DNA of 64,000 nt from contig CBDUPA010000001.1 of assembly GCA_965368975.1 (NCBI GenBank), forward strand, positions 800,001 through 864,000, given 5' to 3'. Below are positions 8,060 to 31,171 of the stretch, one piece after another. Below the pieces are notes generated by a model. The model was not told the origin of the DNA, did no database searches, and worked only from the letters and a program-made list of their open reading frames with translations. Source of the DNA: an uncultured bacterium. Lineage in GTDB: Bacteria > Acidobacteriota > Thermoanaerobaculia > Multivoradales > JAHZIX01. The position numbers and the translations under genes are program-made. Each line of letters opens with the position of its first letter. Position 1 is the first letter of the stretch.

Positions 8060-11000
8060 TTACTGGCAGGCCGTGACCGTAACGTCGTCCAGGAACCAGC
8101 CATCGCGGGTGATGGAACAGTCCGTGATCGAGGTGAAGGCGATGTAAAGGGTCTGGCCGGCACAGCCGCCGGTGCCACTGGTGATGGCGTCGCAGACCGC
8201 GTCGAGGTCCACCGTCGTGCTCTGGAAGGAGCTCTGGGTGGCGGTGAAGATCGAGAGGCCACCAGCGCCGGTGGGCGGGCAGGCGGTGCTCGACGTGCTG
8301 TTGTAGGTGTGACCGCTGAGCGCCGATGCTGGCACCAGCGTGTAATTGCTGCCGTCCAGCGACACAGCCAGGGTAGCGCCGTCGTAGTTCGTCTCGAACT
8401 GGTAGCGGTGGTCGAAAGTCAGCGTGGTGTTGCTGGCCGTCGATGCCACCGAGATACCGGTGCTGCCCTGAGGTTGGGCGAAGTTGAAGTTGTTGCTGCT
8501 GTAGTTGCCGGTGCAGCCACTGCCGCCGAAGCGGAAGATCTTGCTGCCGTTCGACGCCGAGCAGGTCTGGATGCCACGCCAGCTGGTGACGCTGCCGCCG
8601 CTGACGAAGGTACCGCGCGTCCAGTCGGACAGGCCCGAGCCGCTCTCGAAGCCGTTGCTGTATAGCGTGGTGGTGGAGCAGCTACCGCCGCCGCTCTGGG
8701 TGGTGGCGTTGGTTTCCGCCGAGTTGGCGGACTCACAGCCAGCGACCGCGGTCACCACGTAGTAGTAAGTCGTGCTGGCGGACAGGCCGGTGTCGCTGAA
8801 CGACGTGCCGGTCGGGCTGCCGACGTTGGTGTAGGGACCACCGGTGGAGGTTGCTCGGTAGACGTTGTAGCTGGTGGCGCCGCTGACGGCGGTCCAGCTC
8901 AGGTTGATCTGCGTGCTGCTGGCGGCGGTAGCGCTGACGCCCGTGGGAGCCGACGGCGGCGTGCAACCACCGCTCTGGGTGGTGGCGCTGGCCTGGTTGG
9001 AGTCGCCCGACTCGCAGCCGTTGACCGAGCGTGCGACGTAGTAGTACGTCGTGCTGGCGGTCAGGCCCGTGTCGTTGAACGTCGTGCCGCTGGAGCTGCC
9101 GACGTTGCTGTAGGGGCCGCCGGAAGTCGTCGAACGGTAGACGTTGTAGCTGGTGGCGCCGGAGGCGGCGGTCCAGCTCAGGTCGATCTGACTGCTGCTG
9201 GCGGCGGTGGCACCCAGGCTGGTGGGCGCTGCCGGCGGCGTGCAGCCGCCACCGCTGGTCGGGGTCACCGACACGCAGGTGCTGGGCGCCGAGGCACAGG
9301 CCTCGTTGCCGGTCGGCTGGGCGATCATCTGGTAGTAGTAGGTATAGCCGTTGGCGACATCGTTGTCGGTGTACGACGTGCTACTGCTGTCGTTGACCAC
9401 CTTGGTGAAGCCGGCGTTGCACCCGACCTCGTTGCGGAACAGGTCGTAGACGACGCTACCGGAGTTGGTCCAGGAAGCGCTGACCTGGTTGTTGCCGGGG
9501 CTGACGCTGAGCGTCGGAGCACTGGGCTGGGTGCAGCCGCGGAAGGTGACGTTGGCCGCGGTGTCTGTGGTGCAGGCGATCAGGTGACGGTTGAAGGCGG
9601 CATACAGAGCGCCACCATTGGGGGTACCGTTGCTCAGGTTGCCATCGTCATCGTCCGCGGCGCGGAAGACGCGCCACAGGGTGCCGGTGGCACAGCCACT
9701 GGAGCTCCAGGGCGAGGTGCCGGTGTTGCAGGTGTGCGCCGTGGTGGCGGTGGAGCGGGTGGCGTACCACAGGCGCTCGACGGCGGACCAGGCCGCGCCG
9801 CTGCCCGGGTTGGAGATATCGCGGGTGGCGAAGTCCCACAGGGCTTCCGAGGCGACATAGGACTCACAGTGACCTTCCTTGCCGCAGGGCCCGATGTAGT
9901 TCGGGTTCAGCCAGCTCGGGTTGGGGCAGGTGGTCTGGGTGAAGTTGGCCACCGTGTGGGGCGTACCGGAGGTGTGCTTGGCGTAGTCGATATCGCGCAC
10001 GCCGGAGCAGCTGGTGCAAGCATCGCCGTAGCCGGAGCAGTTGCTGCTCTGGAAGAAGCCATTGCCGATGCAGCTGTTGTGGGTAGCCAGGGCGGCGGTG
10101 AAGTCACCGTAGGTCTCGCCGGTGGCCGGGTTCGAGGACGAACCGTTGCCGTCGTTGGAGTCGAGGCCGTGGCCATACTCGTGCATCGAGATGCCCAGCA
10201 CCTCGCCGGTGTTGCCGCAACCACCGCCGGAGCGGAAGAAGTTGAGCTGACCGCCGCCCCAATAGGCGTTGCAGGTCTGGTTGAGGTTGACGCGCACGGT
10301 CAAGTTGCCCTGAAGCCAGGTGTTGCTGGGCAGCCAGCCGCGGCCGGCTTCCTTGGCGCGGTTGATGTTGTAGTACTGGGTGCGCGCGGCGTGCGTGTTG
10401 CCCGCGCCGCCGGAGCCCGGCGTCGTGCAGTCGGTACCCCCGGAGGTGCCAAATGCCAGATTGCCGGTGCTGCTGTCGCTGAGCGCGATCGAACCGCAGC
10501 TGTCGCTGATCGTGACGTACTGACCGGCCAGGTTGGAGGTCACGGTGCCGCCGGTGTAGTTGTAGATGCCGGCGGAGTTGGTGAAGCCGCTGTTGACGTC
10601 GGCGAACGGCATCGGCAGCACGGTCTCGTTGTTGAAGATGTAGGAGATCGGCCAGACACCGCCGGTGACGCTGGCGTACATGTTGGTGTCGGTGAATTCG
10701 ATCACCTCGCCGGTGGTGGCGTCGATGCGAGCGCGCCAGTTGCCGACCTCGCCCGGCCGGTGGAAGAGCAGCTCCCAGACCTTGATCAGCTCACGGCCCT
10801 GGCCAAACTCGAAGCCATCGGTGACCAGCGCGGGCAGCAGCTTGAGGTTGCCCCGGTCGACGAACTCGTCGTTCATGTCGACGCCGCCGATGTGGGCGGA
10901 GAGCGCTTCCATCGCGTACTCACGGTCGTAGACCGTCGCCGGCATGTCGGCGTTCGGCGCAGGGATGTTCTCGCTGCCGAACTGGATCAGGTTGCCGTTG

Positions 11001-11602
11001 TTGACCCGGAAGACCAGGCGTGCGCCCTCGATCGGCAGGCCTTCCAGGACGATGTCGAAGTCGACGAACCACAGGTAGCCACCATACTCACCGGAACGGC
11101 CCTGGTTGAGCACCAGGCTGGCCGGATCGATACCCATCGATGGCGCCACCTGCTCGGCGAACTCGCGGGCCAGTTTCTCGAGAGTGTCGAGCGAGACGCG
11201 CGAGGTGCGGCTGCGCCCAGATCCGTCGGTGCGACCTTCGGTGCGGGTCAGACGGTTGCCGCGCCCCGGGATCCACGGGATGCCAGCGCCTTCCGCGTAC
11301 TCCAGGCGGCCGGTGCGCTGGTCGACGTAGCCGACCCACTCACCTTCGCTGAGCTGCTGAGCGAAGCTCAGGAAGCCTGCCCAGCCTTCGGTGACCAGCT
11401 CGTCGAGTTGCCCGCGGGCCTTGGTGTTGTCGATCGGCTCGGCCAAGGGCTGGGTCCGCAGGCGCTCGTCGGCGAGTGAGTAGTGAGCCAGGGTACCGGA
11501 CCGTTCCGTGACCATCTGTTGCGCCGAGACGATCGGCGCCAGGGCCAGGGTGACGAGCAAGGTCAGGGTCAGTGCTCGCAAGATTGCTGAGTGACGCTTC
11601 AT
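8060..11602 (-). CDS. Large secreted zinc metalloprotease (M4/M36-like) with three fibronectin type III domains and a C-terminal beta domain
   Basis: Signal peptide; propeptide-like region (W..RIDATTGEVI); CNAYW, HEYGH and downstream GETYGD third ligand; FN3 motifs (LSW, YNVYR, TYYYV); AGGAGG RBS at 11609-11614. Confidence 0.85.
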   Translation of the reverse strand: MKRHSAILRALTLTLLVTLALAPIVSAQQMVTERSGTLAHYSLADERLRTQPLAEPIDNTKARGQLDELVTEGWAGFLSFAQQLSEGEWVGYVDQRTGRLEYAEGAGIPWIPGRGNRLTRTEGRTDGSGRSRTSRVSLDTLEKLAREFAEQVAPSMGIDPASLVLNQGRSGEYGGYLWFVDFDIVLEGLPIEGARLVFRVNNGNLIQFGSENIPAPNADMPATVYDREYAMEALSAHIGGVDMNDEFVDRGNLKLLPALVTDGFEFGQGRELIKVWELLFHRPGEVGNWRARIDATTGEVIEFTDTNMYASVTGGVWPISYIFNNETVLPMPFADVNSGFTNSAGIYNYTGGTVTSNLAGQYVTISDSCGSIALSDSSTGNLAFGTSGGTDCTTPGSGGAGNTHAARTQYYNINRAKEAGRGWLPSNTWLQGNLTVRVNLNQTCNAYWGGGQLNFFRSGGGCGNTGEVLGISMHEYGHGLDSNDGNGSSSNPATGETYGDFTAALATHNSCIGNGFFQSSNCSGYGDACTSCSGVRDIDYAKHTSGTPHTVANFTQTTCPNPSWLNPNYIGPCGKEGHCESYVASEALWDFATRDISNPGSGAAWSAVERLWYATRSTATTAHTCNTGTSPWSSSGCATGTLWRVFRAADDDDGNLSNGTPNGGALYAAFNRHLIACTTDTAANVTFRGCTQPSAPTLSVSPGNNQVSASWTNSGSVVYDLFRNEVGCNAGFTKVVNDSSSTSYTDNDVANGYTYYYQMIAQPTGNEACASAPSTCVSVTPTSGGGCTPPAAPTSLGATAASSSQIDLSWTAASGATSYNVYRSTTSGGPYSNVGSSSGTTFNDTGLTASTTYYYVARSVNGCESGDSNQASATTQSGGCTPPSAPTGVSATAASSTQINLSWTAVSGATSYNVYRATSTGGPYTNVGSPTGTSFSDTGLSASTTYYYVVTAVAGCESANSAETNATTQSGGGSCSTTTLYSNGFESGSGLSDWTRGTFVSGGSVTSWRGIQTCSASNGSKIFRFGGSGCTGNYSSNNFNFAQPQGSTGISVASTASNTTLTFDHRYQFETNYDGATLAVSLDGSNYTLVPASALSGHTYNSTSSTACPPTGAGGLSIFTATQSSFQSTTVDLDAVCDAITSGTGGCAGQTLYIAFTSITDCSITRDGWFLDDVTVTACQ
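8695..9245 (-). repeat. Tandem internal duplication of an FN3 domain (~270 bp x2)
   Basis: CTPPAAPTSLGATAASSSQIDLSWTAASGATSYNVYR vs CTPPSAPTGVSATAASSTQINLSWTAVSGATSYNVYR. Confidence 0.85.
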
Positions 11603-11959
11603 TGAATTCCTCCTAAGGTATAGGCGTCATTGCCTGTTGGTTGAATCGCAGTCGCACGGCGCCATTCCCGTCGCTTCGCCAACGCAGGCTTTGCCCGATG
11701 GTCACGCAATCACCGGATGCCTATGTTGTGCGATTCTGATCAGCCCTTGATGTCTGGAGGATCGGGAGGGCACGCCAGGTGCCTGGAGATCCGATTGCCT
11801 GCCATCATCGGAGAGCTATCTGAAAGATAGGGGAAGGGATCAAAGTGCGGACCCGAGTCTTCTTGAGTACTCAGGAGGATACACCCGAGTTGCCTTGAAT
11901 GCAACGGTTCGTGGTCAACGGAGGTGCCTTGAAGCCACCGCTGGGGCGAGATTCGAGGG

Positions 11960-11997
11960 AAAAAAGAAAACGCGCTTCACGACTAGCGTGAAGCGCG
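11960..11997 (-). terminator. Rho-independent terminator
   Basis: Perfect 11-bp stem CGCGCTTCACG/CGTGAAGCGCG with a 5-nt loop, followed on the minus strand by TTTTCTTTTTT. Confidence 0.88.
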
Positions 11998-12134
11998 GAT
12001 CTGATCTCAGGTTGACGCCTATTGAATCAGGTGGAGAGAGGAGGAGAGCAGCTTGCGTGAAATCTGCTCTGTTGGACGCGCAGGTCCGAAGACCGGCGCG
12101 AAACGGACAACGGGCCCCGTGAGGAGCCCGTTCA
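11960..12134 (-). ncRNA. Candidate structured small RNA or leader RNA, family not recognised
   Basis: Five consecutive hairpins including a C(UUCG)G tetraloop stem and a terminal intrinsic terminator; TATACT -10 hexamer at 12138-12143 immediately upstream. Confidence 0.6.
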
Positions 12135-12213
12135 TGAAGTATAGTGAGCGACGTTACCAAGACCGGGACAACTTTTTTTTTGCCGTATTTCGATCGAGTG
12201 AGGAGGATTCGAG

Positions 12214-14349
12214 ATGAGACGGATGTCTACCGGCCTACAGCGTGCTGTCGTGTCGGTGCTGGTGATGGTTAGTTCTATCTGGGCTAGCTCCGTCTCGGCC
12301 CGTGTCGACTCAGCAGAAGTTCCGGGCAATGTGGTGCTGATCACGCTCGACACGACGCGTGCCGATCACCTCGGTGCCTACGGTTGGTCGCACGCTCGTA
12401 CCCCCCACCTGGACGCGTTGGCGGCACGCGGCACGCGCTTCGAACGCTGTGACACCGTGGCGCCGATCACCCTACCCAGCCACAGTAGCCTGCTCACCGG
12501 CCTGCTACCGCCGCGCCACGGCGTGCGCGACAACGCTACCTTTGTCCTGCCGTCCGAGATCCAGACGATCACCACACGCCTGCGCGCCGCCGGTTTCGAC
12601 ACCGGGGCGGTGGTGTCGGCGGTGGTGCTGGCCCGCCGTCACGGTCTGGACCAGGGTTTCCGTCTCTACGATGACGATCTCGGCTCCGGCTACACGGCCG
12701 GCACGGTGGTGGGGGAGCGGCAAGCCGAAGATACGACGCTGGCCGCCCAGCGTTTGCTGCAACAGCTGAAGCCCCCCTTCTTCTTGTGGGTGCACTACTT
12801 CGACCCGCACGAGGAATACCGACCGCCGACCCAGTTCGCCGATGCCGCCACCGGCCCGCATCGCCGCTACGATGGCGAGATCGCCTACATGGACGCGCAG
12901 GTGGGCGCGCTGCTCGACACGTTGCCCGAGCGCACGCACGTCGCGGTGGTCGGGGATCACGGGGAGATGCTTGGTGACCACGGGGAGTTGACGCACGGCT
13001 TGTTGCTCTACCAGGGAGCGCGCCGCGTGCCGCTGCTGCTGGCGGGGCCCGACGTGCCTACTGGTCACGTCCACAGCTGCCTGGTACGTACCACCGACGT
13101 CGCACCGACGTTACTGCAGTTCGCCGGCGTCGAGATTCCGGCGGGGCTGGACGGCGAGAGCTTGTTGCCGCTGCTGCCGTCGGCGGCCTCCGCGGTCGAC
13201 GATGGGGTACCGGAGTGCCGCGACCGCCTGAGTTACAGCGAGAGCTTCCTGCCGTTTTTCGCCTACCAGTGGTATCCGCTGCGCACCCTGTCCAACGGCC
13301 GCTTTCTCTTCCTACAGGCGCCGGAGAGCAGCCTCTACCAACTCAGCACCGATCCAGGGGAGGTGCGCGATCTGGCCGCCGAGCAGCCGGCGGCAGTACG
13401 TCTCTGGCAGAAGCGGATGCGCGACGTGCTGGCCGAGATGGGGGAGGATCTGGAAGGTGAGATGCGACCCGAGAACGTGATCAGCGACGAGCAGCGTTCG
13501 CAGCTGGAGAGCTTGGGCTATTTGGGAGGTGGCGGCGGTGGAGCGGTGGCGGCCGAGTTGCCGGATCCGCGCACCATGACCGATGTGGCGCAGCAGCTCC
13601 ACGAAGCTTTCGAGCGTGTACAACAAGGTGAGTGCGAGGACGTTCTGCGCACGTTGCAGACCATTGTGCAGCGCGACGCTCACAATTTCCCGGCGCTCAG
13701 CCTGGCGGCCACCTGTCTGCGGGACGGTGGCCGTGTCGAGGACGCCCTGGCGCTCTTCCGGCGCGCTGCCGAGGTCAACCCGCTGTCGCCCAATCCGGTC
13801 GCCAACATCGCTGGTTGCTTGCTGCTGCTCGGCCGCCAGGCTGAAGCCGAAGCCGAGTACCGGCGCGCGTTGGCGCTGGACCCGACGATCGCCGAAGCAG
13901 CGACCAACCTGGCGCGCTTGCTGCGGCAGGCTCGACGCCAGCCACAGGCGCTGACGGTGCTCACTGGCGCCCTCGACGCCGGCAGCCATGATCCCCGGGT
14001 CTACCTGGAGCGCGGGCTGATCTACACCGAGTTGGGGCGGCTAGAGCCGGCGCTCGACGACTTCCGCGAAGCCAGCCGGCGCCAGCCGACGGACGTCACC
14101 TCGCTCGAAAACGCCGCCCGCACCGCCTACCATCTGCGACGGTCGGGCGAAGCGGCCAGTTACTATGAGCGCTTGTTGCTGCTCGAACCGCGGCGCCTGG
14201 ATCTGTGGAAAACACTCGGCGCCGTCTATCACTTCGAGCTGGGCAAGCGAGAGGACGCTCTACGCTGCTTCCGCCGGGCGCTCACGTTGGAGATCGACCC
14301 GGCGGAACGGGGGCAGCTGGAGCAGCTGGTGGCCCAGCTGAGCGGGTAA
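12214..14349 (+). CDS. Sulfatase-like hydrolase/transferase with C-terminal TPR repeats
   Basis: Signal peptide, LDTTRADHL, PITLPSHSSLLTG, HYFDPH, GDHGE, LESLGYL, then TPR repeats. Confidence 0.88.
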   Translation: MRRMSTGLQRAVVSVLVMVSSIWASSVSARVDSAEVPGNVVLITLDTTRADHLGAYGWSHARTPHLDALAARGTRFERCDTVAPITLPSHSSLLTGLLPPRHGVRDNATFVLPSEIQTITTRLRAAGFDTGAVVSAVVLARRHGLDQGFRLYDDDLGSGYTAGTVVGERQAEDTTLAAQRLLQQLKPPFFLWVHYFDPHEEYRPPTQFADAATGPHRRYDGEIAYMDAQVGALLDTLPERTHVAVVGDHGEMLGDHGELTHGLLLYQGARRVPLLLAGPDVPTGHVHSCLVRTTDVAPTLLQFAGVEIPAGLDGESLLPLLPSAASAVDDGVPECRDRLSYSESFLPFFAYQWYPLRTLSNGRFLFLQAPESSLYQLSTDPGEVRDLAAEQPAAVRLWQKRMRDVLAEMGEDLEGEMRPENVISDEQRSQLESLGYLGGGGGGAVAAELPDPRTMTDVAQQLHEAFERVQQGECEDVLRTLQTIVQRDAHNFPALSLAATCLRDGGRVEDALALFRRAAEVNPLSPNPVANIAGCLLLLGRQAEAEAEYRRALALDPTIAEAATNLARLLRQARRQPQALTVLTGALDAGSHDPRVYLERGLIYTELGRLEPALDDFREASRRQPTDVTSLENAARTAYHLRRSGEAASYYERLLLLEPRRLDLWKTLGAVYHFELGKREDALRCFRRALTLEIDPAERGQLEQLVAQLSG

Positions 14350-14906: not shown

Positions 14907-17609
<2,703 letters not shown>

Positions 17610-17624
17610 AGCCGCGCGGAGGGA

Positions 17625-17984
17625 TCAGAGCTCGGCGATCTTGTCGAGCAACTGTTTGTGGTCGAAGGGCTTCTTGATGTAGGCGGCGGCGCCGGCCGAC
17701 ATCGCCCGTTCGGTGTCTTCTTCTTTGCCCTCGGTGCTGATGATCACCACCGGAATGTCGGCGAAGGCCGAGTCAGCCTTGATTTTCTGCAAGAACTCGA
17801 GGCCGTTCATGTTGGGCATGTTGATGTCCAGCAGGATGAGTTCTGCGTCGGCGTGTTCGCCGAGCATGCTCAATCCTTCTCGGCCGTCATGAGCGTGTAC
17901 GACATTGTACTGGCGCAGCATGACGTTGAACATCTTGTGGATCAGCTTGGAGTCGTCGACGACCAGGATCTTTGACGGCTGCAC
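17625..17984 (-). CDS. cheY: Single-domain response regulator (CheY-like)
   Basis: ILVVDDS, LLDINMP (phospho-Asp), ISTEG, YIKKPF; GGAGG RBS before GTG; divergent from cheA. Confidence 0.85.
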   Translation of the reverse strand: MQPSKILVVDDSKLIHKMFNVMLRQYNVVHAHDGREGLSMLGEHADAELILLDINMPNMNGLEFLQKIKADSAFADIPVVIISTEGKEEDTERAMSAGAAAYIKKPFDHKQLLDKIAEL

Positions 17985-31087: not shown

Positions 31088-31171
31088 GCCGGAGTGGCGA
31101 AACTGGTAAACGCAGGGGACTTAAAATCCTCCGAGCTAACCCTCTTGCGGGTTCGAGTCCCGCCTCCGGCA
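31088..31171 (+). tRNA. tRNA-Leu, anticodon TAA
   Basis: Acceptor stem GCCGGAG/CTCCGGC, D-loop TGG, anticodon loop CT-TAA-AA, long variable arm, GGTTCGAGTCC T-arm; CCA not encoded; TGnTAGAAT extended -10 at 31061-31069. Confidence 0.96.

Follow-up and report, generated by a model that had tools for sequence, protein, structure and literature searches.

A candidate terminator-ended small RNA in the spacer between divergent protease-like and sulfatase genes of an acidobacterium

Does the spacer between two divergent genes of an uncultured acidobacterium encode an RNA of its own, and would such an RNA act on the gene beside it? The question is raised by a window of 64,000 nt (the whole stretch of DNA analysed here; contig CBDUPA010000001.1, positions 800,001 to 864,000) from a Thermoanaerobaculia genome of 7.1 Mb in 59 contigs, which is 99.3% complete. 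A first-pass annotation of the window, made by a model from the letters of the DNA, had described a five-hairpin RNA on the minus strand of a 611-nt spacer (11603–12213), with two-part complementarity to the ribosome-binding site (RBS) region of a neighbouring gene for a secreted metalloprotease-like protein, here called the protease gene. The other neighbour encodes a sulfatase–TPR protein, and both genes diverge from the spacer. The anatomy described proves to be real, and the reading that explains it best is a small RNA encoded on the minus strand and ended by a terminator. Our folding models lead us to favour, tentatively and at somewhat less than an even chance, a discrete and independent small RNA (sRNA) of about 165–175 nt, which would be encoded from about 12131 to about 11962. 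Silencing of the protease gene by this RNA is possible, with no more than a marginal statistic in its favour.

Acidobacteriota are an abundant soil phylum, and to our knowledge almost nothing is known about their RNA regulators. If the RNA is real, it offers a concrete, testable sRNA candidate with an anti-Shine–Dalgarno (anti-SD) seed beside an uncharacterised family of secreted metalloprotease-like proteins; at present it is a single orphan prediction, and its value is that of a lead, not of a discovery. Table 1 of one review gives four annotated sRNAs for Acidobacteria (PMC9029176, Table 1), and the listings and abstracts of published work on Acidobacteria sRNAs hold no description of this element.

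Folding of the minus strand from 12135 to 11955 with ViennaRNA yields four hairpins (H1–H4), a 14-nt unpaired pyrimidine (CU) tract and an 11-bp intrinsic terminator (Table 1), so that the whole series previously drawn by eye, H1, H2, H3, unpaired tract, H4 and terminator, is recovered in both the minimum-free-energy (MFE) and the centroid structure. The two structures coincide at −73.1 kcal/mol (z = −5.61), and 0 of 200 shuffled sequences are as stable. As a natural control, 158 random 181-nt windows of the 64-kb window have a mean z of −0.15, a standard deviation of 1.26 and a minimum of −4.26; under the same 30-shuffle protocol the candidate RNA scores −4.98, a value that none of the 158 reaches. 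The structure is assigned to the minus strand because of its T tract and its three G·U pairs, which would be C·A mismatches on the plus strand. The individual sequence elements named in the first-pass annotation (TATACT, CCTCCT, ATAGGCGTCA-A-CCTG, the target segment and the protease ATG at 11602) are all present where it placed them.

No other observation argues as strongly for a transcription unit as the terminator, because terminators of this strength are rare in the genome and this one points leftward where no gene ends. With a strong terminator defined as a stem of at least 8 bp followed by at least 6 T in 8, the 7.1-Mb genome contains 102, of which 39 lie outside long open reading frames (ORFs). 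The earlier remark that no gene ends here holds, as both neighbours of the spacer diverge; the terminator stands 359 nt before the protease start codon. Its hairpin (11997–11971) and tail, TTTTCTTTTT, were independently picked up by a pattern scan, and together they form what is expected at the 3′ end of a base-pairing sRNA, namely a Rho-independent terminator with a U tail (an 11-bp stem and then TTTTCTTTTT). A similar 11-bp terminator at the 3′ end of the protease gene indicates that the organism uses such a signal. When the 200 nt before each of the 39 strong terminators outside long ORFs are compared, the only CU tract (at least 12 pyrimidines with CCTCC) is CCUCCUCUCUCCAC, the unpaired tract of the candidate RNA. 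No RNA run was among the sequencing runs listed for this sequence; near-identical contigs of 238–244 nt in two DNA metagenome runs cover only 11683–11985 and show one or two differences, none of them in the candidate RNA.

We infer from this anatomy how the RNA might work. Transcription would start beside a symmetric AT-rich −10-like box, AGTATAGT, possibly shared with the sulfatase gene; the transcript would fold into its four hairpins around single-stranded CCUCCUCUCUCCAC and be released at the intrinsic terminator, where its U tail could bind Hfq. The genome encodes hfq (63.2 bits, above cut-off). Most likely the product would be a base-pairing sRNA acting in trans, which would cover ribosome-binding sites of the GGAGG type with its pyrimidine tract, alone or together with the top of H4. 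Within the box, the leftward TATACT shares 4 bp with an equally good plus-strand TATAGT, which lies 69 nt before the sulfatase ATG. Judged by these hexamers, the box may serve as a −10 element for both the small RNA (leftward) and the sulfatase–TPR gene (rightward); it might just as well belong to the sulfatase gene or make up a bidirectional promoter.

The protease gene would be a candidate target through pairing of AUAGGCGUCA-A-CCUG beside its Shine–Dalgarno sequence (SD), one candidate among many and neither demonstrated nor outstanding. AUAGGCGUCA (12022–12013) perfectly complements UGACGCCUAU (11629–11620), and a CCUG/CAGG match extends the pairing across a 1×3 loop. Perfect pairing of the RNA with the 68-nt start window over at least 10 nt arose in 15 of 3,000 shuffles of the target and in 19 of 3,000 shuffles of the RNA. 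Both segments of the two-part complementarity proposed earlier are thus present in the sequence. Its CCUCCU:AGGAGG half is generic to any strong SD, and in the cis fold described below the SD pairs with 12035–12027; the specific 10-nt half, chosen post hoc, is of marginal significance, at roughly the 1–2% level. Across the genome the 10-mer is no motif: it has 8 copies, where about 8.25 would be expected. We therefore rejected a reading of the inverted 10-mer as a transcription-factor site or as part of a MITE, since it is not enriched and the region is single-copy.

A number of results weigh against a discrete sRNA that silences the protease gene, and they concern fold, promoter, target and relatives in turn. 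The z scores of natural windows have a heavy tail, with 2 of 158 at or below −4.1, so that one such window in 64 kb is not astronomically rare. When MFE is regressed on G+C content, the candidate window on the minus strand ranks 123rd among 2,838 window-strands, which counts against calling the fold extraordinary and which we attribute to the strong C/U bias of that strand. No sigma-70-like promoter was found on the minus strand of the whole spacer by strict or relaxed rules (relaxed meaning at least 8 of 12 matches). The −35 element had already been called poor, and TATACT indeed has no −35 partner under either rule.

For the target, we compared the protease start with 4,536 start windows from the genome, collected by a crude rule of our own that includes false starts (an SD-like motif followed by ATG or GTG and a frame open for at least 120 codons). 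Perfect complements of at least 10 nt to the RNA occur in 76 of these windows. The full-length duplex energy of −40.9 kcal/mol was as low in 42 of 500 shuffles in one set and 14 of 500 in another, hardly the advantage over shuffled sequence that the earlier proposal called for. With the CU tract and H4 alone, the protease ranks 1,032nd of the 4,536 by duplex energy. The structure-aware cofold energy difference (ddG) of −16.2 kcal/mol places it 210th, in the top 4.6%, and the sulfatase start, at −17.5, ranks 130th and so ahead of it, because the GAGGAGG of the sulfatase gene pairs with the CU tract. Target specificity for silencing of the protease by an adjacent sRNA is not supported by these ranks. 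The third-best predicted interaction genome-wide belongs to the start of an 888-codon ORF at about 62937 on the plus strand (cofold ddG −31.6 kcal/mol).

Searches for relatives likewise returned no second copy. BLAST of 191 nt against the 7.1-Mb genome matched the locus itself and otherwise stretches of at most 23 nt, and in 40 relatives it gave nothing better than E = 0.003. Among other genomes of the order, 0 of 299 matched at E ≤ 0.001, none of the genomes compared being of the same genus. A single-sequence covariance model of H1–H4, R1, found only the present locus in its own genome and gave only chance matches when run on 60 relatives, with a top score of 29.1 bits in one genome (G030). 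Run over 158 loci of protease homologues (79 metagenome and 79 genome loci, 34–63% identity, 1.2 Mb), R1 made five matches with E of at least 0.083, all beyond the protease match and none upstream. The syntenic spacers of three genomes (G002, G003 and G005) show no sequence similarity to the present spacer (best E 2.3). In G002, the one terminator-like site of the spacer is a weak one of 6 bp, and the sequence ahead of it, the positional analogue of the candidate RNA, folds no better than shuffles (z = −0.22). Conservation of the hairpins or of the seed, the lack of which the first-pass annotation had said would refute it, was found in no relative searched. With no homologues found, the candidate RNA has as yet no family and, as far as the available data go, is an orphan.

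The first-pass annotation did not recognise a known family, and this stands: an Rfam 15 scan of the whole window returned, above gathering threshold, only the tRNA at 31088–31171. A permissive Rfam scan of 11500–12300 gave top matches of 15.8 and 13.5 bits (E 7–9) against gathering scores of 35 and 81, and ARAGORN reported no tRNA or tmRNA. Several look-alikes were set aside. Two matches to the H2 hairpin elsewhere in the genome are coding sequence (C2:76095) and a gene-end hairpin (C3:378654); a repeat of the REP or MITE type was rejected on the single-copy status of the region in the 7.1-Mb genome; and the plasmid and phage searches gave no match. The 29.1-bit R1 match in G030 combines a hairpin that directly follows the stop codon of one gene with the leader of the next, whose product begins MPYQLPALPYGFDALEPH, presumably the N-terminus of an Fe/Mn superoxide dismutase, and the other R1 matches are generic GC hairpins. 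Same-strand terminator-like sites occur upstream of the protease homologue in 29 of 132 loci that have at least 700 nt upstream; none resembles the candidate RNA, and the 29 appear to mark the 3′ ends of preceding genes on the same strand or to be start-codon hairpins.

What would happen if the terminator were read through? In the fold of a 553-nt read-through RNA, MFE and centroid both form a long-range helix between the candidate RNA and the RBS region, with 10 pairs at probabilities of 0.89–1.0. The SD itself is paired at about 0.7 with 12035–12027, not with CCUCCU at 12044–12039. The earlier suggestion that a read-through product sequesters the RBS is to this extent borne out by the predicted helix and modified in its details, as the partner of the SD is another segment and a second anti-SD is already predicted to mask it. 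This internal anti-SD, UCCUCCUGAG, lies in the protease leader, outside the element delimited by the first-pass annotation. In a spacer-only transcript that starts after the terminator, UCCUCCUGAG and CUUAGGAGGA are predicted to pair at probabilities of 0.86–1.0, with a predicted masking of the SD of about 1.0. The two partners are 257 nt apart. Among 229 sampled starts with the same upstream length, SD masking of at least 0.95 occurs in 12% and of at least 0.99 in 6%, and in these models the masking of the protease SD by the internal anti-SD, in the absence of any sRNA, is suggestive, not decisive.

Taken together, the 29-nt RBS region 11636–11608 complements, in adjacent blocks, two upstream segments, 12022–12007 and 11879–11870. 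One may imagine a two-clamp riboregulator, in which protease translation would be decided jointly by the internal anti-SD of the leader and by the small RNA or the read-through past its terminator. From the folding models we regard this as quite doubtful. If true, it would be among the first mechanistically defined sRNA–target pairs in Acidobacteriota.

Other accounts of the locus dispense with an independent sRNA. The segment might be the 5′ leader or attenuator of the protease gene: transcripts starting at about 12131 would mostly terminate, and those that read through would carry a 530-nt leader in which 12035–12007 clamps 11636–11608 until a signal arrives. The terminator is oriented toward the protease gene, no promoter-like site was found between it and the protease start, and the long-range helix of the read-through RNA appears in MFE and centroid with its 10 well-supported pairs. 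We nevertheless think a leader unlikely, given that long-range pairs in the MFE of a 553-nt RNA are unreliable, that 359 nt separate terminator and start codon, that the fold of the spacer itself is no more stable than that of shuffled sequence (z = −0.85), and that a read-through product which is also translationally silent would be an odd design. A promoter for the leader transcript was not found either; neither the sequences upstream of the 158 homologous genes nor the syntenic spacers yielded a conserved aptamer-like element; and inspection by eye alone showed no antiterminator alternative, the UUCACGC heptamer common to the H3 loop and the 5′ arm of the terminator being at chance level by estimate. 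Somewhat unlikely as well, in our judgement, is a by-product, in which the −10 box of the sulfatase gene also fires leftward and the terminator shields the protease gene as an insulator, the hairpins and the complementarity having no regulatory role. The orphan status of the element in the relatives searched and its marginal pairing statistics suit this account. So does the resemblance to bidirectional promoters, for the opposed −10-like hexamers overlap at 12138–12145 between divergent units, and their predicted start sites, about 21 bp apart, fall inside the 7–25 bp that one preprint calls bidirectional (10.1101/2020.01.31.928960). The same preprint gives preferred spacings of 18, 29, 23, 12, 10 and 7 bp in data from other phyla (10.1101/2020.01.31.928960); the predicted spacing of about 21 bp is outside these classes, and here the −35 is poor on both strands. 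An insulator, moreover, needs neither four extra stable hairpins nor a cUUCGg loop nor an exposed 14-nt CU tract, and the fold z lies beyond all 158 natural windows.

The opposite strand and the small ORFs have to be considered too. The plus strand of the same region is well folded too (−78.5 kcal/mol, z = −4.89, with none of 200 shuffles reaching its stability) and ranks 15th of the 2,838 window-strands by G+C-regressed MFE. It might be a long 5′ leader of the sulfatase–TPR gene, or else carry an upstream ORF, the 54-codon frame at 12053–12217, whose SD is well placed and whose end overlaps the sulfatase start as ATGA. This has in our view a slim chance. The T tract and the three G·U pairs suit the minus strand only, H4 dissolves on the plus strand, and no plus-strand promoter turned up ahead of the hairpins, the sole relaxed match being at 11699. 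The 54-codon ORF has a low third-position G+C (30 of 53 positions G or C by hand count, in a 65% G+C genome), and, like the other three small ORFs that overlap the region (38, 75 and 81 codons), is absent from a collection of 15 billion proteins. A further use of the GGA-rich plus strand, as a sponge for CsrA/RsmA, was dropped because CsrA (PF02599) was not found in the 99.3% complete genome. The slimmest chance goes to an mRNA for a small protein on the minus strand: an ATG stands 2 nt after TATACT and its frame is open for 38 codons, yet that ATG has no SD, lies upstream of the start site expected from TATACT and opens an ORF that crosses three stable hairpins, whose exact sequence is not in the protein collection and for which no homologous DNA was found in the genomes searched.

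Overall, the candidate RNA is a plausible orphan sRNA or leader element, outside known families but of a kind, anti-SD base-pairing sRNA or leader, that is well known. Among the closest known kinds are Hfq-associated base-pairing sRNAs with a Rho-independent terminator at their end and sRNAs with C/U-rich seeds that occlude SDs, such as RsaE/RoxS of Firmicutes. Like these, the candidate is about 170 nt long, opens with a hairpin, exposes a single-stranded pyrimidine tract that complements GGAGG and ends in a U-tailed terminator, and its genome has hfq; unlike RsaE/RoxS, it has no Rfam match in sequence or structure and no homologues, belongs to another phylum and is predicted from sequence alone. 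Terminated riboswitch or attenuator leaders can also act in trans, as SreA of Listeria does. The candidate resembles such leaders in being structured and terminator-ended and in preceding, in the same orientation, a gene with whose RBS it can pair (predicted probabilities 0.89–1.0); it differs in having no conserved aptamer, 359 nt to the start codon and no antiterminator seen, and in its absence upstream of the 158 homologues. A last comparison is with leaders that mask the SD in cis by an anti-SD, in the manner of RNA thermometers. The predicted pairing of UCCUCCUGAG (11879–11870) with the protease SD at a probability of about 1.0 is of this type, whereas the partners 257 nt apart form no compact hairpin of the thermometer kind, and 6% of the 229 sampled starts are masked to at least 0.99.

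Table 1. Features of the spacer and its flanking genes (positions in the 64,000-nt window)
Feature	Position	Strand	Description
H1	12109–12132	−	10-bp hairpin AACGGGCUCC-UCAC-GGGGCCCGUU; one U·G pair, C·A mismatch on plus strand
H2	12071–12104	−	CGCGC-C-GGUC-UUCG-GACC-U-GCGCG; cUUCGg tetraloop, 3-bp outer extension
H3	12045–12070	−	7-bp stem AGAGCAG/CUGCUCU, 12-nt loop
Unpaired pyrimidine tract CCUCCUCUCUCCAC	12031–12044	−	14 nt, anti-SD-like; complements GGAGG-type SDs
H4	12001–12030	−	Weak hairpin, two G·U pairs; bears AUAGGCGUCA-A-CCUG (12022–12008)
Intrinsic terminator	11960–11997	−	11-bp stem (8 GC pairs), 5-nt loop, U-rich tail
RNA-side complementary segments	12044–12039; 12022–12013, then to 12008	−	CCTCCT; ATAGGCGTCA, then A-CCTG (sequence read)
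Protease RBS region	11609–11636	−	CAGG-CAA-UGACGCCUAU-ACCUU-AGGAGG; DNA CAGG-CAA-TGACGCCTAT-ACCTT-AGGAGG, then ATG at 11602
Internal anti-SD UCCUCCUGAG	11870–11879	−	In protease leader; predicted to pair with CUUAGGAGGA (11617–11608)
Symmetric AT-rich box AGTATAGT	12138–12145	both	TATACT (−) 12143–12138; TATAGT (+) 12140–12145
38-codon ORF	12135–12019	−	ATG at 12135 to TAG at 12019; inside candidate RNA
54-codon ORF	12053–12217	+	AGGAGG-N8-TTG; TGA stop overlaps sulfatase ATG (ATGA)
Secreted metalloprotease-like gene	8060–11602	−	1180 aa, ATG at 11602
Terminator of protease gene	8002–7976	−	11-bp stem at the gene's own 3′ end
Sulfatase–TPR gene	12214–14349	+	711 aa, divergent neighbour, SD GAGGAGG

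The spacer has a G+C content of 55%, against 65% for the 64-kb window. The 1180-aa product of the protease gene begins with a signal-peptide-like segment, contains the zinc-protease motif HEYGH and two fn3/Ig domains, and ends in a MAM-like domain. Its first 780 residues match no Pfam family except, weakly, PepSY (E 0.12), and no catalytic-domain family was matched. The signal-peptide-like start, HEYGH and the domain matches make "secreted metalloprotease-like" a reasonable label as judged from the protein sequence. Its top homologues come from Thermoanaerobaculia and metagenome-assembled genomes of Acidobacteriota, in which homologues are plentiful and often multi-copy (confirmed stretches: 139 metagenome and 198 genome; fetched loci L056–L213), and the protein looks like a member of a large uncharacterised family. 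The divergent pair of a homologue and a sulfatase–TPR gene recurs in three of five genomes of the family (G002:C18, G003:C6 and G005:C126).

The protease leader also holds a perfect 6-3-6 palindrome, CTATCT-TTC-AGATAG, at 11816–11830 on the minus strand, about 215 nt before the ATG, which could be an operator. At six Thermoanaerobaculia homologue loci (L074, L086, L088, L105, L191 and L197), a hairpin GGAGG-N7-CCTCC is followed by a T run; it has ATG or GTG in its loop, lies at about −55 to −35 from the predicted starts (approximate positions) and may be an SD/start-codon hairpin of a protein beginning M-P-P. Elsewhere in the window, a second strong-folding, G+C-poor stretch (0.54–0.56) spans 17348–17955, with z = −4.26 at 17348 on the minus strand and −3.6 at 17710 on the plus strand; part of it is directly upstream of a Ser/Thr kinase–TPR gene (14907–17609, minus strand), and terminator-like sites occur at 17630–17717 on the plus strand.

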